Origin: Minisyncoccota bacterium
GTDB taxonomy: Bacteria > Patescibacteriota > Minisyncoccia > Phycocordibacterales > XYD1-FULL-46-19
NCBI GenBank assembly: GCA_040879645.1
Contig: JBBDJY010000006.1
Location: forward strand, 94,240-158,239
Length of the DNA: 64,000 bases
Direction of reading: 5' to 3'
Position numbers and translations under genes: made by a program. Positions 10,436 through 51,592 of this stretch are shown here, piece after piece (the first letter of the stretch is position 1; the number at the start of each line of letters is the position of its first letter). The notes beneath the pieces are model-generated. The model did not search any database, was not told the origin of the DNA, and saw nothing but the letters and a program-made list of their open reading frames with translations.

Positions 10436-10540
10436 AGAAAATTTTGGTTAATTGCTTAAAAAGGCGCGATTAAATCTTGGTCAAGACTGGTTTGATTATA
10501 ACGCAAAAAGATTGAAAATGGTAATTTGCCGGCTGATTGG

Positions 10541-15912: not shown

Positions 15913-17130
15913 ATGAAACCGCGCATTCTTATGTTTGGCTGGGAGTTCCCTCCGCAAAATAGTGGCGGTCTGGGGACGGCTTGTTTTGGTATCTGTAAAG
16001 CGATGGCCAGACAACAAGTGGAGATGATTTTTGTCTTACCGCGCCGGCAACCGGTGGCCGGTAATAATCTGCCGTTGGTTTTTGCCGGTTTGGAGGAGAT
16101 TCGTTTTGAGACGGTCGATACTTTGCTTTACCCTTATGTCACCGATCAGTCTTATGCTGAACATTACCAAGATATTGAACCGGGACCTTACGGCCCAACC
16201 TTATTTGATGAAGTTATAGCCTATGGTAAACGTGCCCGATCGATTGCCCGGAAGCATTCTTTTGATATTATCCACGCTCATGATTGGCTCTCTTTTCCGG
16301 CTGGCCTAGCGGCCAAACGAATTAGCGGTAAACCGCTTATTATCCATGTTCATGCCACTGAATTTGACCGGAGTGGCGGAGCGGGTGTTAATGAAAAAGT
16401 TTATGCCATTGAACGCGAGGGAATGGAACAAGCTGATGGGATTATCGCCATCAGCCATTGGACTAAAAATATTATTATCAAGCATTACGGTATTCCCGAG
16501 GAAAAAATCAGGGTGGTTCATAACGGTATTGATTCTGATGATATTGTTTTAATCCCCGAGTCACTACATCAGCTTAAACGAGTCGGCAAAAAGATGATTC
16601 TTTTTCTTGGTCGAATTACTTTACAAAAAGGCCCGGATTACTTTTTGGCCGCCGCCGCTCGTGTTCTCGAGTTGCGCGACGATGTCTTTTTTGTTGTCGC
16701 CGGTTCCGGCGATATGGAAAGAGCGATGATCCGCCGGGCGGCGGAATTAGGGATTGCCGATCGGGTGCTTTTTGCCGGTTTCCTGCGGGGGGCCGAAGCT
16801 CAAGCGATGTATCAAGCAGCCGATTTATTTGTGATGCCGTCAGTCTCCGAGCCATTTGGTTTGACTCCGCTTGAATCATTGGTCGTCGGTACGCCGGTGT
16901 TAGTCTCCAAACAATCCGGGGTCTCGGAAGTCCTTCATCATGCGATTAAGGCTGATTTTTGGGATATTGATGAAATGACCAATAAGATGGTGGCCTTGTT
17001 GCGCGAACCGGCCTTAAGTAAAACCCTGACGGAAAATGGCCACCGGGAAGCTTTGAGTTTGACTTGGGATCGATCGGTGGCCGGTTATGTTGATTATTAC
17101 AAAACAATATTAAATAAATTAAGAAAATAA
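15913..17130 (+). CDS. GT-B glycosyltransferase, glycogen/starch-synthase-like (GT4/GT5 type).
   Basis: The N-terminus SGGLGTA resembles the KxGGL motif. The C-terminal EPFGLTPLESLVVGTPVLVS is seen, and the gene is followed by GH57 and GH15 genes. Confidence 0.7.
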   Translation: MKPRILMFGWEFPPQNSGGLGTACFGICKAMARQQVEMIFVLPRRQPVAGNNLPLVFAGLEEIRFETVDTLLYPYVTDQSYAEHYQDIEPGPYGPTLFDEVIAYGKRARSIARKHSFDIIHAHDWLSFPAGLAAKRISGKPLIIHVHATEFDRSGGAGVNEKVYAIEREGMEQADGIIAISHWTKNIIIKHYGIPEEKIRVVHNGIDSDDIVLIPESLHQLKRVGKKMILFLGRITLQKGPDYFLAAAARVLELRDDVFFVVAGSGDMERAMIRRAAELGIADRVLFAGFLRGAEAQAMYQAADLFVMPSVSEPFGLTPLESLVVGTPVLVSKQSGVSEVLHHAIKADFWDIDEMTNKMVALLREPALSKTLTENGHREALSLTWDRSVAGYVDYYKTILNKLRK

Positions 17131-17131
17131 T

Positions 17132-18358
17132 ATGGCTTCCGTTTGTTTTTATTTTCAAGTTCACCAGCCTTACCGATTAAAAAAATATCGTATTTTTGAT
17201 ATTGGTCGGGATAATGTTTATTTCAATGATGCTTCCGGTACCAATTTGGATAATAAATGGATTTTTCAAAAAGTGGCGACTAAATGTTATTTGCCAACCA
17301 ATGAAGTTTTACTTGATCTCTTAAACCGTCATCCGGAATTTAAAATCAGTTTTTCTTTATCGGGAGTTTTTTTGGAGCAAGCCGCCGAATATATGCCCCA
17401 AGTGCTTGATTCTTTCAAGCGCTTGATCGATACCGGTCGGGTGGAAATTCTGGGCGAAACTTATTATCATTCGTTGGCTTTTTTACATTCTCGGACGGAG
17501 TGGTTGCGTCAGATTATGCTTCATACTCGGCAGGTAAAAAAATTATTTGGCGTCGAACCGACGACTTTTCGCAATACTGAATTGATTTATAACAATGATA
17601 TCGCTCACATTATCGAGGGCTTGGGTTATCAAGCAATTTTACTGGAGGGAGCCGACCACATTCTTGATTGGCGCAGTCCCAATTTTCTCTATCGGCCGCG
17701 ACGGGGCAGTAAGTTAAAAATGTTGCTGAAAAATTACAAATTGTCGGACGATGTGGCTTTTCGCTTTTCGTCGCGCGATTGGAATGAATGGCCGTTGTCG
17801 GCCGAAAAATTCGCTCACTGGGTTAGTCAGGTCAACGGCAATGGCGAGGTAGTTAACCTGTTTATGGACTATGAGACTTTTGGCGAGCATCAATGGGCCG
17901 ATACCGGCATTTTTGATTTTCTTCGCCACTTGCCGGCCGAATTACTTAAGCATCCGGACAATGATTTTTTGACACCGACGGAAGCGGCCGGCCGTTTTCC
18001 GGCCCGGGGAGTTTTAGATGTTCCGGATTATGTGTCTTGGGCCGATGTTGAACGCGATTTATCAGCTTGGCGGTCCAATGATATGCAATATGACGCGCTT
18101 AATAAAATTTATGCTTTAGAGAAAGACATCATTTCTCTGGGCGATAAAAAATTAATTGATGATTGGCGTCGACTGCAAACTTCCGATCACTTTTATTATA
18201 TGTGCACCAAGTGGTTTAATGACGGCGATGTTCATAAATATTTTAATCCTTACGAATCGCCTTACGATGCCTTTATCACTTTCATGAATGTCTTAAATGA
18301 TTTACAATTAAGATTGAAGCAATTAAAAAATAATTCAGTCGTCACGAATGAACAGTAA
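17132..18358 (+). CDS. Glycoside hydrolase family 57 protein (alpha-amylase / branching enzyme / 4-alpha-glucanotransferase type).
   Basis: The N-terminal motif FQVHQPYRL is seen, in a 408-aa ORF. Confidence 0.7.
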   Translation: MASVCFYFQVHQPYRLKKYRIFDIGRDNVYFNDASGTNLDNKWIFQKVATKCYLPTNEVLLDLLNRHPEFKISFSLSGVFLEQAAEYMPQVLDSFKRLIDTGRVEILGETYYHSLAFLHSRTEWLRQIMLHTRQVKKLFGVEPTTFRNTELIYNNDIAHIIEGLGYQAILLEGADHILDWRSPNFLYRPRRGSKLKMLLKNYKLSDDVAFRFSSRDWNEWPLSAEKFAHWVSQVNGNGEVVNLFMDYETFGEHQWADTGIFDFLRHLPAELLKHPDNDFLTPTEAAGRFPARGVLDVPDYVSWADVERDLSAWRSNDMQYDALNKIYALEKDIISLGDKKLIDDWRRLQTSDHFYYMCTKWFNDGDVHKYFNPYESPYDAFITFMNVLNDLQLRLKQLKNNSVVTNEQ

Positions 18359-20354
18359 ACATCTCATTCTCAAAACTTTAACTCTCGGTAACGGCAACAT
18401 TCTGATTAACTTTGATAAGTTTGGCCAAGTCCGAGATTTTTATTATCCCTATATCGGTTTGGAAAACCATATCGGCAATCATTTACTGCACTCGATCGGT
18501 GTTTATGTTAACGGCGCCCAGTCTTGGCTTAATGACGGTTATTGGCAAATTAAAGTTGATTGCGATTCCGACACTTTCTCCGGCAAATTTACCGCTTTCA
18601 ATGAAGGCCTGGGGATCGAGTTGCGGTTTGTTGATGTTGTTTACAATGAAAAAAACATTTTTATCCGTCGAGCGATTGTCCACAATCATTCCGAAGACGA
18701 GCGGGAGATTAAAGTTTTTTTCTACCAGCAATTTGAGCTTTACGAATCACGGATGGCTCATACCGCTTATTATGACCCCGAACACAAAGCGATTATCCAC
18801 TATCGTAATAAACGAGCCTTTTTAATCGGTGGACAATTGGAAGGTCGGGATTGTTCCGACTTTACCACCGGCGTCTTTGAATCGGATGGCAAAGAGGGGA
18901 GTTATATTGATGTGACCGACGGTCAATTGGCCAAGAATCCGATTGAACACGGCCAAGTTGATTCGGTTATCGCTTTCGCCGCCAATTTCAAACCGGCCGA
19001 AGAAAAATTTCTTTATTACTGGGTCAATGTCGGCTTGTCGGTCGAGGAAGTACGGGAATTGGACAATTATATCAAACATAAAGGAGCCGGCTATTTAATC
19101 AAAACAACTCAAGATTTTTGGCATGCTTGGGTCACCCGTCGGGATTTTTCTTTTTACGGTTTGTCGTCGGAAGTCGTTTCCTTATTTAATAAGTCATTAT
19201 TCTATATTCGAGTCCATGCTGATGTCGATGGCGGGATTATCGCTTCCGGTGATTCCAGTATGCTTCATATGGGCAAGGATACTTATGCTTATGTTTGGCC
19301 ACGCGATGCCGCTTATGCTTGTCGAGCCCTGGACCAAGTTGGCGACTTTAATGTTACCGAGCGTTTTTACCAATTTTGTAATGAGGTGATTACGCCGGAT
19401 GGTTACTTTATGCATAAATACAGCCCGGATAAATCACTGGGCAGTTCTTGGCATGGTTGGTTGCAACCCAATGGTGAATTTCAATTGCCGATTCAAGAAG
19501 ACGAGACGGCGATTGTCTTAATCGTTTTATGGGATCATTACCGTTTGTCTAAAAATCTTGAATTTATTGAAGCTATTTATAATTCCTTGATTAAAAAGGC
19601 GGCTGATTTTATGGTTACTTTTCGTGATGAGGAGATGTTATTGCCCAAGCCTTCTTTCGGTTTATGGGAAGAAAAATTCGGCATTCATACCTACACCGCG
19701 GCGACGGTTTACGGGGCCTTGATTGCCGCCGCCAATTTTTCGCGCCTGTTGGGTAAAACCAAAAGCGAAAATCGTTATATCCGGGCGGCTAAGGAAATTA
19801 AGAGTGGTATTTTGCAGTATTTATACAATACCGATGAAGGAATTTTTTACAAAATGATCAATAAAAATGAAAACGGGGAAATCATTGCCGATCGGACACC
19901 GGATGTTTCTACTTTTTTCGGCTTATTCAATTTCGGGGTGTTAACCCCTGATGATCCGAAAATGATGGCGGTGGCCGAACAAATGAAGCGGGAGGCGGTG
20001 CCAAAGACCGACTTGGGCGGCTTTTGCCGGTATAAAGATGATCGTTATTATCGTCAGCCGGACAGTCGCCATTGTAATCCGTGGTTTGTGACCACTTTTT
20101 GGTACGCTCAATGGTTGATTGCCAAAGCCAAAAATGAAAAAGATTTGGCGGAGGTTAAAGAAATTTTGGCTTGGTCGGTCCGTTATGCCCAAACTTCCGG
20201 TATTTTATCCGAACAATTGGATGCGTCGAGTGGCCGGCAATTATCGGCCACCCCGCTGGTCTGGAGTCATGCCGAATTTGTTATGACCGTCGTTCAATAC
20301 TTGAATAAATTGGAAGAATTTGGTATTTGCCAAGCGGCCAATCCTATTGATTAG
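18348..20354 (+). CDS. Glycoside hydrolase family 15-like protein (glucoamylase/glucodextranase/trehalase type).
   Basis: WPRDAAY is the GH15 signature. The 668-aa ORF has an N-terminal beta-sandwich plus an (alpha/alpha)6 layout. Confidence 0.7.
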   Translation: MNSKHLILKTLTLGNGNILINFDKFGQVRDFYYPYIGLENHIGNHLLHSIGVYVNGAQSWLNDGYWQIKVDCDSDTFSGKFTAFNEGLGIELRFVDVVYNEKNIFIRRAIVHNHSEDEREIKVFFYQQFELYESRMAHTAYYDPEHKAIIHYRNKRAFLIGGQLEGRDCSDFTTGVFESDGKEGSYIDVTDGQLAKNPIEHGQVDSVIAFAANFKPAEEKFLYYWVNVGLSVEEVRELDNYIKHKGAGYLIKTTQDFWHAWVTRRDFSFYGLSSEVVSLFNKSLFYIRVHADVDGGIIASGDSSMLHMGKDTYAYVWPRDAAYACRALDQVGDFNVTERFYQFCNEVITPDGYFMHKYSPDKSLGSSWHGWLQPNGEFQLPIQEDETAIVLIVLWDHYRLSKNLEFIEAIYNSLIKKAADFMVTFRDEEMLLPKPSFGLWEEKFGIHTYTAATVYGALIAAANFSRLLGKTKSENRYIRAAKEIKSGILQYLYNTDEGIFYKMINKNENGEIIADRTPDVSTFFGLFNFGVLTPDDPKMMAVAEQMKREAVPKTDLGGFCRYKDDRYYRQPDSRHCNPWFVTTFWYAQWLIAKAKNEKDLAEVKEILAWSVRYAQTSGILSEQLDASSGRQLSATPLVWSHAEFVMTVVQYLNKLEEFGICQAANPID

Positions 20355-28919: not shown

Positions 28920-29204
28920 TTACTTATCTTTTTTGACGACATTGGCCACTTTATAGACTCGCTTATTACCGTCAAAACGCATTTTTTTCTTGGTGGTGAA
29001 TTTTACCAAGCCGGGTTCTCGAGTATAGAGAGTGTGGTCGCGACCGACACTGACATTAACTCCCGGTAAGATTTTGGTCCCACGCTGGCGAACGATAATC
29101 GCTCCGGCCTTGGCTTCCTGGCCGTCATAAAGTTTAGTGCCAAGATATTTAGGATTGGAATCTCTTAAGTTTTTAGCGGATCCACCCGCTTTACGATGTG
29201 CCAT
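28920..29204 (-). CDS. rpmA: 50S ribosomal protein L27.
   Basis: [22 protein letters not shown]...IIVRQRGTK...GRDHTLY. Confidence 0.9.
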
Positions 29205-29917
29205 AAGGAAATACTTACTGTTAAATTTATTATTGCCAGTATAGTGGAGATTGACAAAAAAATCAAGGCCTACCCCGGTAGGCGAGGGGAGAGGGCGTCC
29301 GGCTTAAAGCCCCCTACCCCCTTTCACTTAATTTTGAGGCCGATTCTAAGATTCGGTGATTTAGTCGGAATTTACCACCGGTATCTGGACCTGTTGTTAA
29401 GGATAAAAAAGTAAAATTTTTAGCTTTTATTTAAAATTTACCAAAATTACACGGTGAAAATTTTGACCGGTTAAGGGTTGGATTTATCAAGTAAATCAGC
29501 TAATCAAAATCAGCTAAATAGGACTCCTAATTAATCATTGGCAATAAAGGGTGACATTGCACCAAGAAGGGCCTCAGAGAGGAAAATAGAGGTACTAGGG
29601 TACCACTCGATTGACTAACCGAGGCCCGTTGGTCGCTACCGGTGAGCGACTTTGCGGACCGGCTTCAATTAAAAGGAGAGAGTCGGATCGTTTATATTAT
29701 AATGTCGCATAATATACATTTTGCGCGGTATTAATCTAAAACCCACTCCCCGGCCGATAATTTATTTTTTCCAACCCGATTCGCCGGTCTCTCTTTTTAT
29801 TACTTTTTCTTTTGTTTCTCCCATGCTCCCTTCTCCGCTCCGTCTTAAGATAGTTTTTTATCAATTGGCTTGTTTAAAAATAAAAAATATCCACTTCTCC
29901 ACCGGAATATTTTTTAG

Positions 29918-29947
29918 TTGACAGAATTTGATATAATTAGTAGTATT
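29918..29947 (+). promoter_or_regulatory. Strong sigma70-like promoter (TTGACA, 17-nt spacer, TAGTAT; a perfect TATAAT also lies at 29932-29937) driving the small RNA.
   Basis: agTTGACAgaatttgatataattagTAGTATtaggggg. Confidence 0.55.
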
Positions 29948-29953
29948 AGGGGG

Positions 29954-30118
29954 TGCAGAGTTCGGTCCCATCCCTCTTCTCGGACGAGGGTGCAATCCGC
30001 CACGGGATAAACTGTCCTCTATGGATGGTAAAGAAACCAGCCGATAGGTCAGAGTTCACCGGACTCTGCACGCCAATCCTCTCCCCTGCGCTTACAAGTT
30101 GCCGGGGAGTTTTTTTAT
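29954..30118 (+). ncRNA. Unclassified small structured RNA of about 120 nt plus an intrinsic terminator. Its architecture is riboswitch-like, or it is a standalone sRNA.
   Basis: A 13-bp closing helix pairs GUGCAGAGUUCGG (29954-29966) with CCGGACUCUGCAC (30060-30072). Internal hairpins are present, plus an alternative local hairpin that re-uses the 3' strand. The terminator ctcccc...ggggag + UUUUUUU lies at 30082-30117. No ORF is present. Confidence 0.5.
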
Positions 30119-30293
30119 ACAAAAAATATTTAGGGCGGTTTTTAAGCTCACCAGATTCCCTCCCCATTCTTGACGAATAAAAATAATAGTGTTAGTAATT
30201 TATTAGGAAGAACGTTAAAAACTTGGGTCTGTCTGCCGTAGGCAGGCCCGCTGGCAAAAATCGCGACTTTTTGTCGCCGAAGAGGAGACTACT

Positions 30294-30893
30294 ATGAGTG
30301 ATATTACTCTCGATGTCGGCCTCGCTTACAAGCTTAAGCAGGCACTATCTCGCAACAGTATTCCCGACGTTGCCGACCTTGATTGGTTGGCGACGGGCGA
30401 TAACATCGCCAAGATGCGTCGGGTGCGACTCGGCCACGCCGAGATCACCGACCCGGAGCACGTCATCGACTGCGATGATGCCGATCCGTTTATTCTGAAC
30501 AACTGGAAGTTCGAGGAACACCGCAAGGGCGGCGCGTTCAAGTGGAACGCCGCCGACGTGGCGCTTCACCTCGACAAGGGGCAACAGAACGGCAAGTGGA
30601 TCGAGGGCAACAAGCTCCGCAAGGAGCTGGCAGACAAAACCGTCTTGAACGCCAATGTCCTCGACTACCTGCTTGCCCATCCACACCTCATTCCCGAGGA
30701 ATGGAAGGGAAAGATGGTCTTCTTTTGGGGTACGATCTACCGCGACCGGTTCGGCGACCTCTACGTCCGTTACCTCCACTGGCTCGGCGACAGGTGGCGC
30801 TGGAACACCGGCTGGCTTGGCGACGTTTGGTACGACTACAACCCCGCCGCGATTTCCGCCGGTCTGCCGACCGATAGGCTTGATTATCGGTAG
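30294..30893 (+). CDS. Hypothetical protein with a Trp-rich C-terminus, in a high-GC, foreign-looking gene.
   Basis: 199-aa ORF at about 60% GC against a background of about 45%. Many overlapping alternate-frame ORFs on both strands are typical GC-rich artefacts. A terminator follows at 30998-31019. Confidence 0.55.
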   Translation: MSDITLDVGLAYKLKQALSRNSIPDVADLDWLATGDNIAKMRRVRLGHAEITDPEHVIDCDDADPFILNNWKFEEHRKGGAFKWNAADVALHLDKGQQNGKWIEGNKLRKELADKTVLNANVLDYLLAHPHLIPEEWKGKMVFFWGTIYRDRFGDLYVRYLHWLGDRWRWNTGWLGDVWYDYNPAAISAGLPTDRLDYR

Positions 30894-30997
30894 TCATTAT
30901 CGGCCGATTGAACTTGGCCCGACATCATTTTGGTGTTGGGCTATTTTTTTGTCGATGTTTAATATAAAAAGAGTCGGGGTGATTTGCAAACTAAAAA

Positions 30998-31019
30998 AGC
31001 CCCCAAGCGGGGCTTTTTT
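30998..31019. terminator. Bidirectional terminator.
   Basis: aaaaaagcccccaagcggggctttttta. Confidence 0.75.
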
Positions 31020-31053
31020 AGTAGGGATCTCATTCAAACGAGTTGAGACGAGA

Positions 31054-31527
31054 TCAAGCGTCTAAAGCGATTTTTTTACTCCAACACGGTCGGCTGGCGT
31101 TCCAGTGTCTGGTCCCTTCATTTTCAAGTAACCAGAGAGCGTAACCAACATTACCTTCTAGGGTGTAGATATCGAAACCTAATTCAGCGCTTTTGTCTTG
31201 ATGGAATGTTTCGTTGATTTGGAAGAGCCCGACATCTTTCGGATTTACCAGACCGCGCAAGGGCTGTCCGGTCCGCTCGTCATATTGACGGTCGGTGCTT
31301 TCACAAAAAGCGATTGAAGTGGTCAGACGGGCGTCTAAGCCGCGTCTCAAGCTCTCCAACTCAACATATTCCGAGACAGTTAGTTCGGAAACTATGGCTG
31401 TTTGGGTTTCATCTAAGTTGCTATCGGGCGTTGGTCCGATCGCGACCGTGGGGGTAAAATTCGCAAAGGTTATGAGGCTTGCAAAGCCTATTTGGACGAT
31501 ACGTAAAATAAGCTGGCAATAAAAAAA
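31054..31527 (-). CDS. Lytic transglycosylase-like (SLT/Rpf-type lysozyme-fold) protein. The open frame extends to a stop at 31528 with no ATG/GTG/TTG before a TTG at 31359.
   Basis: IAFCESTDRQ...GLFQINETFH is an SLT-type motif. The upstream in-frame translation ...ILRIVQIGFASLITFANFTPTVAIGPTPDS looks like a signal peptide plus linker. Confidence 0.5.
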   Translation of the reverse strand, partial: FFYCQLILRIVQIGFASLITFANFTPTVAIGPTPDSNLDETQTAIVSELTVSEYVELESLRRGLDARLTTSIAFCESTDRQYDERTGQPLRGLVNPKDVGLFQINETFHQDKSAELGFDIYTLEGNVGYALWLLENEGTRHWNASRPCWSKKIALDA

Positions 31528-31682
31528 CTAAGTATTAACCCTAGTTTCCTTATCTGATTTGTTTTCAACTTAATGTTACAGTCAACCACGCATTCTCTGT
31601 AACGTCAACATTGTAATATGGTGGGAAATAAAAGTCAAGGGGTAAAATAGTATGGTAAAGTATGGTTTAAAATAAGGGTATT

Positions 31683-31958
31683 TTAGCCTTTTGGCCACAA
31701 TGAAATTACTTTCTGCCACAGGCTCATTAAATAGTCACCAAGAGCGGTTAGTGGTCCATAAGCGTAAGTGAACCACCAGTTTTTGACCGTGGCCAGGGCG
31801 CTTTTAACCATTTCCCAAGCAAAAGTAAAATTAGTACGCATGGTTTCTGAATCCAGCAGGCCTCGGAGGTCAATTTTAAGGATAGATAGGATAATAATGG
31901 TAAAAATAATTAAGCTTAAAAGCTTAATCAAGCCTGATTGTTTGTGGCCGGAAGTCAT
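31683..31958 (-). CDS. Small membrane protein, hypothetical.
   Basis: 91 aa with one transmembrane helix. Confidence 0.4.
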   Translation of the reverse strand: MTSGHKQSGLIKLLSLIIFTIIILSILKIDLRGLLDSETMRTNFTFAWEMVKSALATVKNWWFTYAYGPLTALGDYLMSLWQKVISLWPKG

Positions 31959-31984
31959 ATTACCTATTATAACTCACAATTCAA

Positions 31985-33277
31985 TTAAAGATAAGATAAA
32001 GGATTTAATTTACCGTTAAAGCCGGATAAGGGTAAGCGATAGACGGCACCGGCACAGGATTTGCTTTTTAATTCGGTAATGCCATCGGTTACTCGGACGG
32101 CGGAAGTTACCAGTACTTCAAAATGTAAGTGCGGACCGGTGGTATAGCCGGAATTGCCGGTATAGGCGATTTCTTGACCGGCCTTGACGGCATCGCCTTC
32201 CTTAAGCGGTGTATGCGATAGATGAGCGTATAGGGTTGAGAGGCCGTTAGCATGCTCCAGCAACAACCATTTACCGTAAGACGCCCCCGGGCAGACGCGA
32301 TCGGTGTCGTCAATCCCGGTCACTCGCCCGTCGGCGACGGCGTAAGTCGGCGTGCCGACACTGGCCGCTAAGTCAATGCCACTATGACCTTTACCGCTAT
32401 AAACTTGAGGGTTTTGCGTCGCAAATGGCGTGTTGCCGAAATATTGGGTAATCCGGACTTCTTTTAACGGCCACCTTAAAACACCACTACCCGGACTGGG
32501 TAAAGAGCTCGGATCAATCACCACTCTGATTTGTTCTTCAATCCGTCTAATTTCCGCCTCAATTTGCTTCTTCTGCTCCAGCCGTTTGGCTAATTGTTGT
32601 TGGTAAGTACTTTCTTCATTTCGGGTTGAAGTTAATAAAGCGTTTTGTTGTGTCCGTTCGCGATCAACAATCGATTTCTGGCTGGCCAAACGGTTCTGGA
32701 GCGTACTCAATTCCTGCCGTTCCCGTTCTTCTTCAGTCATCCGGATGGCCATGGCCACTTGGTGATCTTGTAAGGCCAGAAGATTACTTTTCATTTCTTC
32801 TTGCAGGCGTTCCAGGGCGTTGGTTTCTTGCAAAAAATCGGATAGTGAATTATGAGTTAAAAAAATCTCAACGATATTATCGGTATTGATTAAATTTATT
32901 TTTTTTATTGCTTCAGCCATTACCATTCGCCGATTAGTGATTTCTTTTTCTGTGTCGGCAATTTCTAAGTTTAATTTTTCAAGCGTTAATTCAGTCGTTT
33001 GGATTTCTTTGGTCGTCAGATTAATATCGGCTGATAATTTTTGGCGGGTTAAATCGATTCGCTCTATTTCTGTTTGTAAGGTATTGGCTTTACTTTTAAC
33101 TTGCGACAATCGTTGACTGTATTCGGCAATCTCTTTTTCAATTTGTTGGATTTCACTGCTATGACTTTGAATTTCCTTTTTCAGGTTTTCCACATTACCA
33201 ACAACCGGTACCGGTTTGCCGGCTAAAGCGAGGAATAAACAAAAAAGCAAGACAATGATTTGCGGGTTCTTTTTCAT
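31985..33277 (-). CDS. M23 (LytM) family peptidase with a long N-terminal coiled-coil (EnvC-like). The start was moved to MKKNPQ, which gives an ATGA overlap with the gltX stop.
   Basis: Signal peptide MKKNPQIIVLLFCLFLALAG, a Q/E/L-rich coiled-coil, and the M23 motifs GHSGIDLAASVGTPTYAVADGRV and YAHLSH. Confidence 0.8.
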   Translation of the reverse strand: MKKNPQIIVLLFCLFLALAGKPVPVVGNVENLKKEIQSHSSEIQQIEKEIAEYSQRLSQVKSKANTLQTEIERIDLTRQKLSADINLTTKEIQTTELTLEKLNLEIADTEKEITNRRMVMAEAIKKINLINTDNIVEIFLTHNSLSDFLQETNALERLQEEMKSNLLALQDHQVAMAIRMTEEERERQELSTLQNRLASQKSIVDRERTQQNALLTSTRNEESTYQQQLAKRLEQKKQIEAEIRRIEEQIRVVIDPSSLPSPGSGVLRWPLKEVRITQYFGNTPFATQNPQVYSGKGHSGIDLAASVGTPTYAVADGRVTGIDDTDRVCPGASYGKWLLLEHANGLSTLYAHLSHTPLKEGDAVKAGQEIAYTGNSGYTTGPHLHFEVLVTSAVRVTDGITELKSKSCAGAVYRLPLSGFNGKLNPLSYL

Positions 33278-34605
33278 AGGGTTAAAGCGTAACTTATCCG
33301 AGACAAGGTCTCTTCCTTGCCGATAATGGCGGCCACGGTAAAAGGGTCGGGTGATTTTTCTCGGCCGGTTAAAGCGACTCGGAGTGGCCATAAGACTTCT
33401 CCGCGACCATTGGCGGTGGCAAAATCCCATAGCTTGTCTTTAATCACTTCCGCCGTGAAATCATCTTTATCAATCTGATCAATTATCTCCTTGGTTTGAG
33501 CCAGATATTTTGCCGGGCCGAGCATTTCTTTAGCTAAACCGGGTGGCGAAAAGTAAAAGTCATATTCGCCTTCTTCGGCTAATCTCCGGATGTCGTTAAA
33601 GACGGTAATGCGTTCGGTGATGAGCGGAATGATTTGGCGCAACCGCTCGTCGCTATAGGTTGGCCGGGTAAAAATATTTTCCGGTAATTGATTCTTGATT
33701 TGAGTGAATAGTTCGTCGGCCGGCAAGCGTTTGATTTGCTCGCGATTAAACCAATCTAATTTATCTTGATTAAAGACCGCTCCACTTTTTTGAATACCGT
33801 CCAGAGAAAAAAGTTTAGTCAATTCAGTCAAAGTAAAAATTTCTTGATTAGTCCCCTCCTTGCCTGCTTGGGCCGACCAGCCTAGGCTTGCCAAAAAATT
33901 AATCATCGCCTCCGGCAAATAACCTTGTTCGCGGTATTGGCGAAGGTCAACCGCCCCATGGCGCTTGGATAATTTTGAGCGGTCCGGAGCCAAGATAAGC
34001 GGAATATGAGCGTAAGCCACTGTCGGTTTAATCTCATCGGCGACGGCCAGGGCTTCGGTAATTAAGATTTGGCGGGGGGTGTTAGAAATATGGTCTTCGC
34101 CGCGAATAATGTGAGTAATGCCCAGTTCTCGATCATCAATGACCGAAGCCAAATGATAGAGTGGGCGGTTTTCGTCTTTAGCGATGACAAAATCACCCAA
34201 GTCACTGGTATCAAATTCAATATTACCACGGATAAGATCGGTAAACCGGATTAAGCGATTGGGATTTTTAAAGCGAATCACCGGTTCCCGTCCCCCCTCA
34301 TCGGTCGAGACATAGGCTTGGCCGCCGGCCAGTAATTGTTTTAAATATCGGCGATAAATATCGGTTCGTTCCGATTGTTTGATTTCTTGGTCAAAAGAAA
34401 GACCGAGCCAAGCTAAGCCACTTTTGATACTTTCTTCATATTCCGGTCGAGAGCGTTCGTTGTCGGTGTCGTCGATACGCAAAATGATCCGACCGTTTTG
34501 CTTGGCGGTAAAAAGATAATTAAATAAGGCCGTCCGGGCGCCGCCTAAGTGCAAATTTCCGGTCGGACTGGGGGCAAAACGGGTAATGATTGATTCAGTC
34601 TTCAT
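33274..34605 (-). CDS. gltX: Glutamyl-tRNA synthetase.
   Basis: PSPTGNLHLGGARTALFNYL (HIGH-type) and KLSKR (KMSKS), 443 aa. Confidence 0.85.
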   Translation of the reverse strand: MKTESIITRFAPSPTGNLHLGGARTALFNYLFTAKQNGRIILRIDDTDNERSRPEYEESIKSGLAWLGLSFDQEIKQSERTDIYRRYLKQLLAGGQAYVSTDEGGREPVIRFKNPNRLIRFTDLIRGNIEFDTSDLGDFVIAKDENRPLYHLASVIDDRELGITHIIRGEDHISNTPRQILITEALAVADEIKPTVAYAHIPLILAPDRSKLSKRHGAVDLRQYREQGYLPEAMINFLASLGWSAQAGKEGTNQEIFTLTELTKLFSLDGIQKSGAVFNQDKLDWFNREQIKRLPADELFTQIKNQLPENIFTRPTYSDERLRQIIPLITERITVFNDIRRLAEEGEYDFYFSPPGLAKEMLGPAKYLAQTKEIIDQIDKDDFTAEVIKDKLWDFATANGRGEVLWPLRVALTGREKSPDPFTVAAIIGKEETLSRISYALTL

Positions 34606-35722
34606 GGCTTAAGGCAATATTAACGATTTCTTCGGCAATCAATCGGCCGGCTGTCGGTCGGGCAAAAGTTTTGGCGCCCTCGACCATTTCCTTAGCCAGG
34701 GTCGGGGTAGCAAAAAATCGTTCAATTTCCGACCATAAAACCGAAGCCGATAAATTATTTTCTTCAATCACCCAAGCACCGCCGGAACGGGCATAAGTAA
34801 AGGCATTACTGCGTTGGTCGTGACTGACTGTCTCGGGAATGGGGATGATGATAGCTGGCACTTGCCAATAAGCGATTTCAAAAATCACCGAACCGGCGCG
34901 GGTAATAATCAAACCGGCGGCCCCGGCGGCCATCCTCAAAGCCAGGTCGTCTAATTGGTCGAAAGGCTTGTAATAAGCACGATTTTCATTATCAGCCAGA
35001 ATAACTTGGCTACGATTTTTGATTTCGTTGAAATGTTTGGGGCCGGTTTGGTGGATGACGCTGTAATTATTCAATAAACGGGGCAGAATCTCTAAAATCG
35101 TCTCATTGATTTTACCGGCTCCCAAGGATCCGCCCAAGACCAAAATCACCGGTCGGTCTTCGGGTAATTCTAAAAATTTATGCGCTCCCTTCTTGACCGG
35201 ATGGAGAATACCTTCCCGCAAAGGATTGCCGGTAACCGCCGTTTTTTCCTCCGGAAAGTAGCCGGCCGCTTCCGGGTAAGAAACGGCTATTCGTTTGGCA
35301 AATTTTGCCGACCAGCGATTAGTCCGTCCCGGTCGCGAATCAGATTCGTGGATAAAAACCGGAATACGGAGAAGACGAGCCGCCCATAAGGCCGGCAGGC
35401 TGGCATAACCACCTTTACTGAAAACGACGTCGGGATAAAGCCAGAACATTTTCCAAGTGGCGATAATAATCCCGGCGATCAGTTTAAAGGGGTCAATCAG
35501 ATTTTGCCAAGCAAAGTAGCGCCTTAATTTTCCCGACGGGGCCGAAACAAAAATGATGTCATTGGCTAAAAGCAAATCTCGATCATAGGGCCGGTCGGAC
35601 ATAAAATATAATTTGGCCCGAACCAATTTTTTAGCAAAAACGATATTGTTGATTTCTTGAGCGACGGCGATTAGCGGATAGAAATGTCCGCCGGTCCCTC
35701 CGCCGGTTAACAGGATCTTCAT
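34595..35722 (-). CDS. murG: UDP-GlcNAc:lipid I GlcNAc transferase MurG.
   Basis: ILLTGGGTGGHFYP N-terminal motif, GT28 layout, 375 aa. Confidence 0.85.
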   Translation of the reverse strand: MKILLTGGGTGGHFYPLIAVAQEINNIVFAKKLVRAKLYFMSDRPYDRDLLLANDIIFVSAPSGKLRRYFAWQNLIDPFKLIAGIIIATWKMFWLYPDVVFSKGGYASLPALWAARLLRIPVFIHESDSRPGRTNRWSAKFAKRIAVSYPEAAGYFPEEKTAVTGNPLREGILHPVKKGAHKFLELPEDRPVILVLGGSLGAGKINETILEILPRLLNNYSVIHQTGPKHFNEIKNRSQVILADNENRAYYKPFDQLDDLALRMAAGAAGLIITRAGSVIFEIAYWQVPAIIIPIPETVSHDQRSNAFTYARSGGAWVIEENNLSASVLWSEIERFFATPTLAKEMVEGAKTFARPTAGRLIAEEIVNIALSHED

Positions 35723-35739
35723 TGTCTTTTGAGTTATAC

Positions 35740-36840
35740 TTAAGCGCTTTTTTCGGCGATATTTCTAATAATCCCTGACTCCAATAAAGCAAACAAAAGA
35801 GCGGTACCGCCCTGGCTGAAGAAAATGAGCGGTATTCCCGTTAAAGGAAAAACAGCAATCATGGCGCCGATATTAATAAACGATTGCGATATAACTAGTA
35901 TAACAAGACCGACGGCCAATAGTCTACCGAAGACATTGGCCGCTCGACTGGCAATTTTTAAGCCCCAGAGAGCATAAAAGATAAATGACATAATGATTAA
36001 ACCGGCACCAATCAAACCAAACTCTTCGGCGGCGACCGAAAAAATGGAGTCACCAATCGGTTGGGGTAAGAAACTGAACTTTTGCACACTTTGGCCGAAG
36101 CCTCGGCCGGTAATCCCGCCTGAACCGATAGCAATCAATGATTGGTTGATTTGATAAGATGAGCCGAGTAAATCACTGTTGGGATTTAAGTAAGTGAGCA
36201 TTCGCTCCATAATATAAGGTCGACTGACGATTAGTCCTCCGATTAAAAGAAGTGAGAATAGACCGATTAGGATAAAATGCCGCCATTTACCACCGGCCAC
36301 CAGAAACATTGCCGCGCCGGTGGTGATAATGACGATGATCGTGCCGGTGTCTTTTTGCAAAGCCAAAATGCCGGTTGCCAGCCCGATTAAAACCAAAAGC
36401 GGGACTAGGCCGTATTTGATGGTTTGGACCTGATATTTAAAAGCCGTCAACCAAGCGGCGGCGTAAATAACAAAAGCAAATTTTAATAATTCAGCCGGTT
36501 GGAAAGACAATCCACCAATAATAAGCCAGCGCCGGGCGCCGCCGGCTTCCAAGCCGAGGCCCGGGATAAAGGTTAACAGACTGACAAAAATGGCCGTCAT
36601 AAATAAAATTAAAGCGTATTTACGCCAAAAATTAAACGGCACTTTACTGACCGCAAAAAAGAGTCCCAAGCCACCGATTAAAATAATAAATTGCTTGACG
36701 GCAATTAAAACAAAATGCGGGAAATCTTGGCTGGCCTGTCCCAAAACGGCAGAGAGAAAAACAATATAACCCAAAGTCGCCATTATTAAGACAACAACGG
36801 TAAAGGCCTGTCTGATTTTATTTTTTCTAACTTTGGGCAT
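35740..36840 (-). CDS. ftsW: FtsW/RodA/SpoVE (SEDS) family protein.
   Basis: 366 aa with about ten transmembrane helices, positioned between mraY and murG. Confidence 0.75.
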   Translation of the reverse strand: MPKVRKNKIRQAFTVVVLIMATLGYIVFLSAVLGQASQDFPHFVLIAVKQFIILIGGLGLFFAVSKVPFNFWRKYALILFMTAIFVSLLTFIPGLGLEAGGARRWLIIGGLSFQPAELLKFAFVIYAAAWLTAFKYQVQTIKYGLVPLLVLIGLATGILALQKDTGTIIVIITTGAAMFLVAGGKWRHFILIGLFSLLLIGGLIVSRPYIMERMLTYLNPNSDLLGSSYQINQSLIAIGSGGITGRGFGQSVQKFSFLPQPIGDSIFSVAAEEFGLIGAGLIIMSFIFYALWGLKIASRAANVFGRLLAVGLVILVISQSFINIGAMIAVFPLTGIPLIFFSQGGTALLFALLESGIIRNIAEKSA

Positions 36841-36901
36841 AATAATTAATCTTCTCCCGACTTAAGATTAAATAATGTTGTCGATTTTGCGGTCAATCGA
36901 C

Positions 36902-37960
36902 TTACTTGCTTAATAAAACCAAAATCATACCGACAATGGCGGCGATAACACTGATCACCCAATAACGCATTACCACTTTGTAAGCCGGCCAGCCAATCGA
37001 TTCAAAGTGATGATGCAGTGGGGCGACATTAAAGACTTTTTTACCGTGACGCAAGCGTTTGGAAGTTAATTGGATAATGACCGACAATGACGTGGCCAAA
37101 AGCGGTAAGGCGATAATCGGTAGGAAAATTACCGAATCGGTCAAGAAAGCGATGACGGTCAAAGTGGTCGTCAAGCCGAGGATGCCCGTTTCTGACATAT
37201 AAAAACGAGCCGGCGGGATATTAAACCACAAAAAAGCCAAAGTTCCACCGGCCAAAACGGCGGAGAGAGCGGCAATATCAATTTGATTTTGGAAAAAAGC
37301 GATACCGGCATAGGCGGTAAAAATAATCGCCATCACTCCCCCGGCCAAGCCGTCCAAGCCGTCAATGACGCTACTTGAGAATAAACTGAGCATAACCAGA
37401 ATAAATAAAGGGATTAACCAAATGCCAAGAAAAAGCTCTCCACCCCAGGGAATGGTAATGGTCGCTACGCCTAATTTACTGTAAAACCACCAACCGCCAA
37501 CAAGGCCAATACCCGACACGACTAATAAGCGATAACGAAAAGGCAGGCCGCCGGAAATGAATTTGCCATCGCCTTTAATTTGCATTATGTCGTCAATTAA
37601 GCCTAAGCCGGCGGCGGTGATCAAGGTAAATAAAGGCAACCAAGTCTGATTTCGGCTTAAAAAATTAAGTTTGGTCGTAATATCATTCGGCCAGATTTGG
37701 GCGATGAGCCAGAATAAAAAGACCGTCAACAGGGCACTGGCCCAAATAACAATACCACCCATTCGCGGTGTGCCAACCTCTTTTTCTTTATGTAAGCGAT
37801 CAAAAATCGGCGTCGCTCGCCCATCAGGGGCTTGTTTGCCGGAACGCTTTTTCCATAGTTTGTATTTATAAAGATAATGAGTCAGAAACGGCGTGGCCGC
37901 CATCCCGATAAAAAAAGCGGTCGTCGTCGGAATAAAAACTTTGAGAACGTCGATAAACAT
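36902..37960 (-). CDS. mraY: Phospho-N-acetylmuramoyl-pentapeptide transferase MraY.
   Basis: 352 aa polytopic protein with DD/IDGLDGLAGG motifs. Confidence 0.85.
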   Translation of the reverse strand: MFIDVLKVFIPTTTAFFIGMAATPFLTHYLYKYKLWKKRSGKQAPDGRATPIFDRLHKEKEVGTPRMGGIVIWASALLTVFLFWLIAQIWPNDITTKLNFLSRNQTWLPLFTLITAAGLGLIDDIMQIKGDGKFISGGLPFRYRLLVVSGIGLVGGWWFYSKLGVATITIPWGGELFLGIWLIPLFILVMLSLFSSSVIDGLDGLAGGVMAIIFTAYAGIAFFQNQIDIAALSAVLAGGTLAFLWFNIPPARFYMSETGILGLTTTLTVIAFLTDSVIFLPIIALPLLATSLSVIIQLTSKRLRHGKKVFNVAPLHHHFESIGWPAYKVVMRYWVISVIAAIVGMILVLLSK

Positions 37961-37972
37961 ATTGATTATTAA

Positions 37973-38950
37973 TTACTTAACTACCCTGCCTACCGCCTGC
38001 CTGCCGGTAGGCAGGGTAGGTAGGGCAGGCGTCAGGTAGGATTGATATTCAATCGTGGCTTGCACCAAGGCGATAATATCGGCAAAGCGATAATCTCGGG
38101 TGGAAGCTAGGGCGACCGCCACATATGGTCGGCCCAGACCGGCATCAAAAACGACGGCTAAATTACCGCCGGCATTATCGGTAAAACCGGTTTTGGAAGC
38201 CAGTAGGCCGGCAATGTTCGTCACGGATTTATTAGTATTGTGACCGGTATAATTTTCACCATCAATGGTTTGACGCTTAATCATCGGTTCGCGAGTCGGG
38301 GCGAGTAAGGCCGGATATTCCGTCAGGGTATAACGGAATAATTTTGCCACATCAACGGCGGTACTATACGATCCGCCATAAGGCCCGCCGACATCCAAGC
38401 CGGTCGGATTGATAAAATAAGAATTAGCTAAACCAATCTCCTCGGCTAGACGGTTCATCGCCAAAACAAAATCTTCTCCGGTTTTTTGTTTGTAAGTGGC
38501 CGCGATGGCATTGGCGGCGCCATTAGAAGAGGTGACCAAAGAAAAATCCAACAAATCACTTAAATACCACCGGCCCTGGCCGAGGCCGGCATTACTGCCC
38601 TGGCGGAGAGAAATATCATCAACGGTGACAATGGTCTCACTGTCCAATTTATTGACCGCCGTTATTGCCGACATTATTTTGGTGATAGAAGCCAGAGGTA
38701 ATAACTTATCCTCATTCTTAGCAAAAATTATTTCACCACTTTCTAAGTCCATGACGATCACCGCTTCGGCCGCCAAGATTAGGTCGCTAAACGGATCGTG
38801 GGGCGGTGGTTGATTGACCGCCACGATACTGGCCGCCAATTGATTATGAGCTTCGGCCCAAGGCAAAAGATAAATACCACCGCTTAAGACGGCGAGCATG
38901 GTTCCGGCGATAATCAGTCTATTGGTTAATTGGGGATTCGGTTTTTTCAT
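37973..38950 (-). CDS. D-alanyl-D-alanine carboxypeptidase (S11, PBP5/6-like).
   Basis: Signal peptide and the SxxK motif ASITKIMSA, 325 aa. Confidence 0.75.
   Translation of the reverse strand: MKKPNPQLTNRLIIAGTMLAVLSGGIYLLPWAEAHNQLAASIVAVNQPPPHDPFSDLILAAEAVIVMDLESGEIIFAKNEDKLLPLASITKIMSAITAVNKLDSETIVTVDDISLRQGSNAGLGQGRWYLSDLLDFSLVTSSNGAANAIAATYKQKTGEDFVLAMNRLAEEIGLANSYFINPTGLDVGGPYGGSYSTAVDVAKLFRYTLTEYPALLAPTREPMIKRQTIDGENYTGHNTNKSVTNIAGLLASKTGFTDNAGGNLAVVFDAGLGRPYVAVALASTRDYRFADIIALVQATIEYQSYLTPALPTLPTGRQAVGRVVK
37981..38019. repeat. 14-bp perfect inverted repeat embedded in the 3' end of the carboxypeptidase gene, immediately upstream of mraY.
   Basis: ctaccctgcctacc gcctgcctgcc ggtaggcagggtag. 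Confidence 0.6.
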
Positions 38951-45849: not shown

Positions 45850-46737
45850 ATGAAGATCCACTCTGTTGGAATCGGGCTTATGCTCGTTGTTTTGCTCTTG
45901 GCCTACTCGGCCGAGGCGCAACGCAATCGCAACAAACTGCTGGGTGACGGTCGGGAGGTGGCCGCTCAGACTGGGGCCAACCCCCAGTCACAAGTGGAGC
46001 TCATCTCCATCCCCGCGGACCCGTCGAAACCGACCTTCTACGTCACCGTGGAAGAGCCGTTTGTGATGGCGGCCCAAGACATCACTTCCGGCGGTGGCAT
46101 CACGCCTGGCGCGCCGGAACAGTCTTACTTCATCTCCAACTGGTTAATCGCCACTCAGATGCACCATCCTCAAGCGATTAGCCCATCGGCCCCACTGAGC
46201 GAAAAGCTGGGTTATGGCATGGCCGCCCAGCTCACCAGTGTCTTGACCCGGATCGGCAATCTGGCCGTGATTGATTACCCCACTTATCGCGATAATCCGG
46301 GTCGTTATCCTGAGATTTTCGTCATTCGGGGTACAGTCACCGAGTTCACCGAGACCGATGGTCTGGATGAACAGAAGAAGGGTTTCGATACCAAAATCGC
46401 TGGCCGGGTACTCTCGATTATTGGCGGCGGACGCGGATTGGGCCAGGCTGGCAATCTCATCTCCAGCGCTAATGTTGGCCAGAAGAAGATCATCACCAAC
46501 CGAACCGGTGTGGTCGGCTTGGATATCCAGCTAATTCAAACGGCGACCGGCCGGGTGATGCGCTCGACCCCTTGCCAGGGAACCTTCACCACCCAAAGCG
46601 CCACGGAGATCCAACATGGTTTAGGCTTCAGCGAAAGCCAGTCCGAATACCAAGCTTCGGCTTTAAACCAAGCCAGTCGGGCGGCTTTGAACCAAGCCGC
46701 GACCGAAATTTGGCAAGCTCTGGCAACCACGCGATGA
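45850..46737 (+). CDS. Secreted protein of unknown function, possibly a CsgG-like periplasmic assembly component (weak resemblance), in a GC-rich islet.
   Basis: Signal peptide MKIHSVGIGLMLVVLLLAYSAEA, about 58% GC. AGGAGG lies upstream. Confidence 0.55.
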   Translation: MKIHSVGIGLMLVVLLLAYSAEAQRNRNKLLGDGREVAAQTGANPQSQVELISIPADPSKPTFYVTVEEPFVMAAQDITSGGGITPGAPEQSYFISNWLIATQMHHPQAISPSAPLSEKLGYGMAAQLTSVLTRIGNLAVIDYPTYRDNPGRYPEIFVIRGTVTEFTETDGLDEQKKGFDTKIAGRVLSIIGGGRGLGQAGNLISSANVGQKKIITNRTGVVGLDIQLIQTATGRVMRSTPCQGTFTTQSATEIQHGLGFSESQSEYQASALNQASRAALNQAATEIWQALATTR

Positions 46738-50402: not shown

Positions 50403-51031
50403 TTAACCGCAATAAGATTATTATCTTCTTTCCAAGGCTTAGACATTGCTTTGATAAAAGTTTTTCGACCAACTTTCCGATTTTTAATTGGTGGCAATCC
50501 CGGATCATGGAAAGTAATATTATTATCTTCTATTGCCGTGATTAGAACCAAATGACTGGCATATCCTTTCTTTCTTTCCAAAACGTAAGGGTTAATTGAT
50601 ATCATAACCAAAAAGCCGTCATAGAAATACCTCTCAATATCACTGATAGAAATTTTTTTATTTATTAATTTAATTAAGGGATTCTTGATCAATTTCCGGG
50701 CTTGTATCTGTTCATTATCTAAATCAGAATATTTTTCTTGAACTTCAAAAACCTCTTTGCTCCAAATTTGGGCTAAATATTTTTTTCCTTGGCGAACAAA
50801 CTTTTTATAGTCGAGATTTTCAATATTAACCACCTCAAATCCCAGATTGGCTAAATATAGTAATCCTTGACTCTGCCAAGTCCATTGTTTCGGCTTATGA
50901 CCAATCAGGGGATCTAATATGTGATAGGGATAATTTTTATTCGGCAAATAATATTTTAAAACCATCCGCCAGCAAGCTGGCAAGCAACGAGTGTCATCTT
51001 TAGTATTTTTGTAAAAAGGAATATTAAGCAT
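50387..51031 (-). CDS. Standalone peptidase C39-like (papain-fold, bacteriocin-processing type) domain protein. The start is probably MLNIPFY; the listed ORF runs to 51076 through a terminator.
   Basis: DTRCLPACWRMVLKYY (catalytic Cys motif) and SHLVLITAIEDNNITFHDPG (His motif). Confidence 0.5.
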   Translation of the reverse strand: MLNIPFYKNTKDDTRCLPACWRMVLKYYLPNKNYPYHILDPLIGHKPKQWTWQSQGLLYLANLGFEVVNIENLDYKKFVRQGKKYLAQIWSKEVFEVQEKYSDLDNEQIQARKLIKNPLIKLINKKISISDIERYFYDGFLVMISINPYVLERKKGYASHLVLITAIEDNNITFHDPGLPPIKNRKVGRKTFIKAMSKPWKEDNNLIAVKWKEI

Positions 51032-51063
51032 AATTTTTATTAGGATAACACATAAATAAAATA

Positions 51064-51095
51064 GGCGGCAGGTCATGACCTGCCGCCAAGTGTCT
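51064..51095 (-). terminator. Rho-independent terminator after the Gly-rich micro-ORF.
   Basis: ggcggcaggtcatgacctgccgcc plus a T-rich run on the minus strand. Confidence 0.75.
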
Positions 51096-51112
51096 GACAG
51101 GGATTACTTCTT

Positions 51113-51181
51113 CCTGCCACCACCACCTCCGCCGCAACCACCACCGTTGTGATTACCGCCGTTGCCGGACATACTAACACC
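51113..51181 (-). CDS. 22-aa Gly-rich, Cys-containing micro-ORF, MSGNGGNHNGGGCGGGGGGRKK, with a strong Shine-Dalgarno. An in-frame 28-aa form starts at MRGGVS.
   Basis: GAGAGGAGGTGTTAGT ATG. Terminator immediately downstream. It is co-transcribed with the 61-aa ORF from the leader cassette. Confidence 0.35.
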
Positions 51182-51206
51182 TCCTCTCATATGGATTTTT
51201 TGCCTG

Positions 51207-51392
51207 CTACTTCTCAAGTGGCAAACGAATGCCCAAGGGTGAAAAGGAAGGATAACTAGTATTATATCTCTTCCTCCTATCCTTACTCCTCCTCCGCTCA
51301 GGGATTTTTGGGTCAGGATAGTTGAACCAAGGATTTTGTTGGCTTGAGGTTGAGTCAGAGGAAAATCCTGGCACTAGTTCTTCCGGGATCAT
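51207..51392 (-). CDS. 61-aa hypothetical peptide MIPEELVPGFSSDSTSSQQNPWFNYPDPKIPERRRSKDRRKRYNTSYPSFSPLGIRLPLEK.
   Basis: The ATG lies 9 nt after the cassette's AGGAGGTGA. The listed ORF starts at a GTG in that Shine-Dalgarno. Confidence 0.4.
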   Translation of the reverse strand: MIPEELVPGFSSDSTSSQQNPWFNYPDPKIPERRRSKDRRKRYNTSYPSFSPLGIRLPLEK

Positions 51393-51465: not shown

Positions 51466-51476
51466 AACCCGATGTC

Positions 51477-51500: not shown

Positions 51501-51592
51501 TGAAATAAAAATCAAGCCAAAATCCCCTTTATTTAAAATGTATTTTCTCCTCCGCAAAAAATTTCTCTGATTCTGTCGGCCGGTGACAACAC

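Follow-up and report, generated by a model that had tools for sequence, protein, structure and literature searches.

A GC-rich Patescibacterial gene assigned by homology to a DGR variable-protein family, here probably as an orphaned copy

The gene at positions 30294-30893 of the window, which is the whole 64-kb stretch of DNA analyzed in this work, has a GC content of 0.583 (0.605, 0.375 and 0.770 at the first, second and third codon positions), against 0.430 for the window as a whole. The locus therefore raises two questions: what kind of protein does such a gene encode, and why does its composition depart from that of its flanks? The first-pass annotation regarded it as a foreign gene for a protein of unknown function, within a small horizontally acquired unit that might derive from a phage or plasmid. 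We find instead that the protein belongs to a family of targets of diversity-generating retroelements (DGRs), and that its composition is a property of the family.

Composition and surroundings of the gene

The contrast in GC content stands on recalculation. Among 600-bp stretches of the 64 kb (standard deviation 0.054), GC is highest, at 0.588, in the one that starts at 30311, and local GC is 0.59-0.60 within the gene but back to 0.43-0.49 within about 150 nt on either side. Codon usage was rightly described as aberrant, because the GC3 of 0.770 compares with 0.29-0.54 in the other window ORFs of at least 150 aa, with one exception (45850-46737, at 0.67). The 199-aa product is indeed rich in tryptophan, with 11 Trp residues (5.5%) in the translation, six of which are within the last 55 residues. 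The reported nest of overlapping ORFs on both strands is present and, as had been supposed, spurious: across 70 family members an open antisense -1 frame covers 74% of the gene, and in synonymous-codon shuffles it covers 75%.

The terminators that had been described on both sides were also found. The RNA 5' of the gene ends in a hairpin and U-run, and downstream of the gene a hairpin with T-run (30915-30953) is followed by a perfect hairpin between an A-run and a T-run (30990-31022). The lytic transglycosylase named as a neighbor fares less well. A match exists, but it is below threshold (SLT_3, E = 0.012, 16.5 bits versus a cut-off of 27).

The upstream RNA is a structured RNA candidate of about 125-170 nt in the interval 29918-30118 (+), with a minimum free energy of -71.3 kcal/mol and z = -3.6. 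Its long closing stem pairs 29950-29966 with 30058-30074, and it lies between a strong promoter-like site, TTGACA-17-TAGTAT (29918-29946), and the hairpin and U-run terminator. Rfam searches of the interval return nothing even at E<=1, nor does ARAGORN detect a tRNA or tmRNA there. Rfam gave no credible match for the upstream RNA, for the leader discussed below or for the 3' flank; matches to SorY and RNAI are far below the gathering scores.

Other parts of the window are also unusual in composition. The ORF at 45850-46737 (+) is a second GC-rich ORF (295 aa, GC 0.571, GC3 0.666), with a sub-threshold CsgG match only. Within a low-GC block at about 50400-64000 (about 0.26-0.40, versus about 0.45 upstream) are genes for a 7TM histidine kinase, a ThiF-like enzyme, an AMP-binding enzyme, a dihydroorotate dehydrogenase and a protein that has a weak nitroreductase-like match, as well as several ORFs that have no family. 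This block is a better candidate for an acquired or accessory region than is the gene at 30294-30893. At about 29000-38000, cumulative GC skew peaks and the genes switch from mostly the + strand upstream to mostly the - strand downstream, a convergence as at a replication terminus. The gene at 30294-30893 is located at this orientation switch.

A large protein family linked to DGRs

The 199-aa protein is identical to MEX0918720.1, a GenBank MAG protein annotated as "hypothetical protein WDZ85_02015" of Candidatus Paceibacterota. Searches of Pfam, NCBIfam and PHROGs and of PDB sequences with a profile returned nothing, in keeping with the earlier remark that the product has no recognizable motif. 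Homologs are nevertheless numerous. At E<=0.01 there are 1,542, all from Patescibacteria-type MAGs and none of them named; they are typically about 190 aa long and 55-79% identical. An exhaustive profile search produced 4,270 representatives of 50%-identity clusters, and matching stretches are present in GTDB species genomes in 349 cases. The 90% cluster of the window protein has a single member.

The conserved core corresponds to profile positions of about 50-188. Some proteins carry the core in tandem, and in many relatives the N-terminus is replaced. In the family alignment, the first approximately 145 residues are strongly conserved and are followed by FFWGTIYRxxxGxLxVRYLxWxGxRWxWxxxWLxxxWxxxxPAA, which is interspersed with hypervariable columns. 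The family thus consists of small proteins with neither a signal peptide nor a TM segment, with a core of about 135 aa and a variable region (VR) that occupies the last 41 or so codons.

The AlphaFold model of the window protein has a pLDDT of 90.5. Residues 1-50 are predicted to form a three-helix N-terminal region, and residues of about 52-148 the first half of the conserved core. The modeled order of secondary-structure elements is beta-alpha-alpha-beta-beta-beta-beta, which appears compatible with a CTLD. In Foldseek searches at E<1, the model matched no structure in PDB or BFVD.

Patescibacteria carry DGRs in unusual abundance, with soluble targets that lack domains, and the genomic contexts of the relatives connect this family to them. 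Related loci are labeled L001-L087, and the counts below are over 84 loci for linkage, 83 for GC content, 85 for the leader and 70 that were informative. The nearest relative of the window protein (P0002, at locus L086; 79% amino acid identity) is encoded by a gene that is followed by bAvd and a reverse transcriptase (RT). The window protein is 77% identical to the product of the L006 gene and 55% identical to that of the L003 gene, and both of these loci have a template repeat (TR), Avd and RT. At L003, the homolog is directly followed by bAvd, which is on the opposite strand, and by an RVT_1 reverse transcriptase. The last 123 nt of this gene are repeated 466 nt downstream with 80% identity (VR 6458-6580, TR 6924-7046), and 24-25 of the mismatches are at TR adenines. 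A downstream repeat with mismatches at adenines is the signature of a DGR, in which the target gene carries the VR and the repeat is the TR.

The same arrangement recurs in the family. The cassette VP(+) - TR(+) - avd(-) - RT(+) is found in 32 of 84 related loci, and in linked loci Avd starts about 445-550 nt after the stop codon of the target gene. A TR with almost purely adenine mismatches is present in about 37 loci (for example, adenine/other mismatches of 15/0 in L011, 20/0 in L073 and 18/0 in L059). In linked loci, the accessory proteins match the Avd model NF033474. The RT of relatives contains LGNLTSQ, which we take to be the DGR-type [LIV]GxxxSQ motif. One DGR clade, clade 2, is restricted to Patescibacteria, is found in cellular genomes, and has targets without recognizable TM or other domains (Roux et al. 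2021, PMC8144416).

Homology to genes linked to TR, Avd and RT therefore makes it almost certain that the window protein is a member of this Patescibacterial family of DGR targets. The description "protein of unknown function" can accordingly be replaced, because the kind of protein is identifiable as a DGR variable (target) protein. Features of the window copy are as follows; P1, P2 and P3 are the hairpins of the family's 5' leader.

30170-30198 (+): putative promoter, TTGACG-17 nt-TAGTAA, recognized by eye about 95 nt before the ATG
30222-30293 (+): remnant of the 5' leader, from alignment with relatives; about 55-75 nt of P1/P2 are deleted
within 30222-30293 (+): stub of the P1 hairpin in the leader remnant, TCTGCCGTAG and GCAGG
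30247-30256 (+): CCCGCTGGCA motif of the leader remnant
30263-30277 (+): hairpin P3 of the leader remnant, GCGAC-TTTTT-GTCGC
30282-30287 (+): SD of the leader remnant, GAGGAG
30294-30893 (+): CDS with ATG start, DGR variable-protein family member of 199 aa
30294-30737 (+): non-variable part of the protein, from the AlphaFold model, profile search and alignments
30738-30860 (+): VR, codons 149-189, YRDRFGDLYVRYLHWLGDRWRWNTGWLGDVWYDYNPAAISA, from alternating invariant and variable alignment columns
30861-30893 (+): window-specific C-terminal tail, GLPTDRLDYR and stop, which replaces the "...AS-stop" (GCAAGTTGA) ending of the family
30915-30953 (+): intrinsic-terminator-like hairpin and T-run, ending the gene's transcript
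30990-31022 (no strand): perfect 14-bp hairpin between A-run and T-run, a bidirectional terminator common to the convergent gene at 31054-31359 (-)

The promoter-like site was not flagged by a consensus scan, and its -10 hexamer is without the T at position 6. Promoters of the TTGACA type are present in relatives at the equivalent position, and relatives also have a terminator at the same relative position as that at 30915-30953.

An adenine-specific footprint in the window VR

The VR of the window copy has the organization expected from the family alignment, with invariant scaffold residues (W, R, L, Y and G) interleaved with hypervariable positions. It also contains an internal 33-nt repeat (30738-30758 / 30771-30791). 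Because the TRs available for comparison come from other genomes (L006 and L086) and are not cognate, the differences reported here are relative to the TRs of relatives. Positions 30739-30858 differ from the L006 TR at 23 of 120 nt, and 15 of 31 TR adenines are affected, as opposed to 8 of the remaining 89 bases (Fisher p = 8.7e-6). A similar bias is seen with the L086 TR, from which the window VR differs at 16 of 30 adenines and 12 of 88 other positions (p = 3.3e-5). In the alignment, all but one of the 14 variable codons have kept C as their last base (NNC). It is therefore very probable that the window VR was shaped in the past by adenine mutagenesis.

The route to such a footprint is shown by the relatives and by established DGR biology. 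A TR located about 330-360 nt downstream of the target gene is transcribed, and the adjacent RT and Avd copy the TR RNA into cDNA, with misincorporation opposite template adenines. The cDNA then replaces the VR, so that codons of the AAC type are rewritten. Scaffold codons free of adenine, namely TGG (Trp), CGN (Arg), CTC (Leu) and GGC (Gly), remain unchanged, and such an adenine-free scaffold could produce the Trp-rich C-terminus and part of the GC richness. Because TGG has no adenine and is not mutable by a DGR, the abundance of Trp in the tail of the protein would be explained.

Decoupled copy or remote target?

Within the 64 kb, the window copy lacks the partners that accompany its closest relatives. 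Neither a TR nor a second copy of 30294-30960 is present in the 64-kb window, which is part of a 161-kb contig (blastn, word size 7), and searches for RT and Avd in the window with the L003 proteins produced chance matches only (tblastn, E>5). Nucleotide homology to the closest relatives (81-83%) extends only from 30244 to 30859 (blastn), and its 3' limit coincides with that of the VR/TR homology. Beyond this point, the conserved GCAAGTTGA(ACTC) ending and the CTTNGG-loop hairpins of the family are absent from the window. In place of the hairpin-rich flank are an unrelated 10-residue tail, modeled with pLDDT <50 for residues 191-199, and a different 3' UTR.

The gene itself still appears to be constrained. 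Over the 145 N-terminal non-variable codons, comparison with L086 (P0002) gives dN 0.078 and dS 0.58 (dN/dS about 0.13). The ORF is intact, and these values indicate purifying selection on the window gene. The explanation that we judge best, and probably correct, is that the gene is a DGR-family target in the form of an orphan copy that has been decoupled from its DGR and whose VR is frozen. Such a copy would retain the VR footprint while having no TR, Avd or RT in the 64 kb and having lost its 3' flank and most of its leader. It is probably expressed as a binding protein of fixed specificity.

Copies without a neighboring DGR are not peculiar to this genome. Among 70 informative family loci, 38 have no DGR within 10 kb (L001, L002, L007, L008, L010, L019, L020, L023 and about 30 more). 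At L072, an unlinked copy (9896-10468) lies 7 kb from a DGR (16900-19500) that has its own target. The VR of the unlinked copy is 72% identical to the TR of this nearby DGR and has many non-adenine mismatches. Because the L072 copy does not fit the neighboring TR, true orphan variable-protein genes exist, and decoupled copies appear to be common in the family.

The absence of a DGR nearby does not by itself mean that a target is inactive. Remote targets can be diversified by DGRs acting in trans (PMC5758913), and a DGR (TR, Avd and RT) located elsewhere in the genome might still rewrite 30738-30860. The intact ORF under purifying selection, the NNC form of the variable codons and the adenine-specific footprint all accord with such continued activity. 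Moreover, the 3' motif of the family is kept about as often in unlinked loci (13 of 34) as in linked loci (18 of 37), so that being unlinked is not sufficient evidence of inactivity. However, the window copy has lost the conserved sequence directly 3' of the VR, and in characterized DGRs the IMH and a hairpin, which retrohoming requires, are located there. Its leader hairpin has been lost as well, and the orphan at L072 provides a precedent for true decoupling. Also, none of the best 120 homologs of the L006 RT can be assigned to the MAG of the window, although the NCBI matches among them, other than P0283, have no accessions. This one RT candidate, P0283 (MEX0916972.1), is on GCA_040879605.1; its accession precedes that of the window protein by about 1,750, and it appears to belong to another MAG. 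Active diversification from a remote DGR is thus possible but rather unlikely, and current decoupling of the window copy is somewhat favored.

The 3' flanks of relatives have features of their own. In L006:10565-10640, L003:6583-6660, L034, L046 and L062, CTTNGG is repeated directly after the "...GCAAGT-stop" ending. The repeats fold into short hairpins whose loops are of the CUUG or UUCG type, and a terminator comes next; both linked and unlinked loci conserve this arrangement. The CTTNGG hairpins may correspond to the hairpin/cruciform element for target recognition in other DGRs.

The GC excess is a trait of the family

The high GC content that distinguishes the window gene is shared by its relatives. 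The target gene is richer in GC than its flanks in 81 of 83 loci (mean 0.561 versus 0.460, Wilcoxon p = 9e-15), and the excess is seen across hosts from 0.31 to 0.60 GC. For example, target genes have a GC content of 0.579 in a host of 0.313, and of 0.60-0.62 in hosts of 0.55. The excess begins about 50 nt into the CDS, amounts to +0.09 in the non-variable part and +0.19 in the VR, and falls to zero at the stop codon. This profile does not differ between DGR-linked and unlinked loci. In the same cassettes, RT (0.438) and Avd (0.431) have host-like GC, and two more distant Patescibacterial target types (L072:16912-17592 and L085:4517-5170) show the same contrast. The shift consists mainly of a gain of C-ending codons, with C3 at 0.40 in target genes and 0.24 in host ORFs. 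Thus, the GC excess is a family-wide preference for C-ending codons that is confined to the CDS, and it is no sign that the gene was recently acquired, came from a phage or is chimeric.

A recently acquired foreign gene or mini-island, whether from a phage, a plasmid or another donor, would owe its GC content to a GC-rich donor. The gene's GC content, 15 points above that of the window, invites this reading, as do the different genomic neighborhoods in which family members reside and the position of the gene at a GC-skew peak with converging genes. Terminus-like regions of this kind often collect insertions. However, the excess occurs in 81 of 83 loci, in hosts of 0.31 and of 0.60 GC alike, is limited to the CDS and is absent from RT and Avd. 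Neither a GC-rich donor clade at near-zero dS nor donor-like composition of the flanking bases is seen. Its sharp boundaries at the CDS argue against gene conversion or an island. Furthermore, dS to the nearest relatives is 0.6-0.9 while GC3 is unchanged in hosts of 31% and 43% GC, which speaks for active maintenance of the composition. Calibration of dS against flanking orthologs found no usable orthologs common to the window and related loci.

Hallmarks of mobility are likewise missing from the window, which has no tRNA, no att-like repeats flanking the gene, no integrase and no PHROG match. These absences, and the occurrence of the clade in cellular genomes (PMC8144416), speak against the suggested phage or plasmid origin. 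What survives of the proposed horizontally acquired unit is that the unit occurs in different contexts in different genomes; a recently acquired island is not indicated, and we consider a foreign origin of the GC excess improbable.

An assembly chimera, in which a fragment from a GC-rich organism was mis-joined into a low-GC contig, had been named as a result that would overturn the earlier annotation. Composition does change sharply, assembly is known to suffer from DGR repeats, and 14 related contigs break off no more than 3 kb beyond the gene, but a chimera is very unlikely, to the point of being negligible: GC-rich coding sequences in low-GC flanks recur in dozens of independent assemblies, including the closed chromosomes OY969413.1, OY968788.1 and OY969557.1, the composition boundaries coincide with start and stop codons, and promoter, SD and terminator are in place.

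Several causes of the preference for C-ending codons were considered. Adenine avoidance, or off-target mutagenesis by the DGR, is rejected because A3 and T3 are depleted equally outside the VR (0.56x and 0.62x), whereas C3 is 1.67x. An overlapping antisense gene that constrains synonymous sites is also rejected because the antisense frames match the synonymous-shuffle null. The openness of the +3 frame is 0.42, versus 0.32 for the null. Translational selection for high expression is unsupported, as a ribosomal protein gene of the window, rplI, has a GC3 of 0.47. Our best guess is that the excess results from codon-level or mRNA-level selection that is specific to target genes.

A conserved RNA leader upstream of target genes

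Most family members are preceded by a leader that consists, in order, of hairpin P1, hairpin P2, the sequence CCCRCUGGCA, hairpin P3 and the SD. P1 is a long hairpin (UUUGCCRUAGCAG...CUGCUAYGGCAAA), P2 is a hairpin of variable sequence and P3 is GCGAC...GUCGC. When 24 examples are aligned with MAFFT, pairing in the two P1 helices reaches 95-96%, with compensatory changes, versus 38-46% for the whole structure when partners are slid. P2 and P3 fold in nearly every example despite differing sequences. A conserved U-G pair favors an RNA structure on the coding strand.

A covariance model of P1 and P2 detects the motif ahead of the gene in about 52 of the 85 loci, both linked and unlinked, and also before the different target type in L085. 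Intact leaders are present, for example, at L006:9883-10000, L002:5863-5990, L003:5874-6000 and L086:400-517. The leader motif has no matching Rfam family. The model has no match in the 64-kb window.

Additional copies of the leader motif occur at L015:10728-10806, downstream of the target gene, and at L020:6006-6088, 4 kb upstream of the gene. The copy downstream of the L015 gene suggests a second, tandem target gene.

Comparison with known systems

DGRs of the CPR were reportedly a subject of Paul et al. in 2017. The analyzed system is no new kind, but a Patescibacterial DGR variable protein that is probably orphaned here. It belongs to the same family as the clade 2 variable proteins of Patescibacteria/CPR (PMC8144416), with 47-79% identity to proteins linked to TR, Avd and RT. 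Like these proteins, it has a C-terminal VR, for which relatives show adenine-specific TR/VR differences, and it is small and without a TM segment, signal peptide or known domain (PMC8144416; Wu et al. 2018, PMC5758913). The window copy differs from them in having no TR, Avd or RT in 64 kb, no conserved 3' flank and no 5' leader hairpin, and in ending with a non-homologous tail of 10 residues.

The C-type lectin-fold targets Mtd (Bordetella phage BPP-1), TvpA (Treponema denticola), archaeal AvpA and Thermus TaqVP are alike in having a C-terminal VR in which scaffold and variable positions alternate. The modeled order of secondary-structure elements in the window protein appears compatible with their CTLD. 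However, sequence similarity to these proteins is not detectable, and the window gene has neither a lipoprotein signal nor a phage-tail context. The VR motif of the family, WGTxYRxxxGxLxVRxLxWxGxRWxW...WL...W...PAA, differs from the usual CLec VR consensus. Remote DGR targets in Treponema, Legionella and Trichodesmium (PMC5758913; PMC8867640) resemble the window gene in that the gene bearing the VR is away from the RT. Those targets have a matching TR elsewhere in the genome, whereas the window copy has none in 64 kb and its 3' cis elements are not conserved.

We found no published description of the CDS-limited GC3 enrichment or of the three-hairpin leader of Patescibacterial DGR targets. It is tentatively proposed that the target genes form a class characterized by CDS-limited enrichment of C-ending codons, by the three-hairpin leader and by the location of about half of the copies more than 10 kb from a DGR.

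Conclusions

For annotation, a "hypothetical protein" that is conspicuous by its composition can now carry the label of a DGR variable-protein family member, and its striking GC anomaly is no reason to assume recent horizontal transfer or misassembly. The codon composition of target genes, their structured leader and the existence of DGR-less copies provide handles on the expression and continued diversification of these targets. If the proposed class is real, the DGR-less copies, some of which demonstrably misfit the nearest TR, would mean either that trans-diversification is widespread in CPR genomes or that frozen binders of fixed specificity have been domesticated repeatedly. In that case, the window copy would illustrate the frozen state, with its leader and its 3' homing elements both lost.
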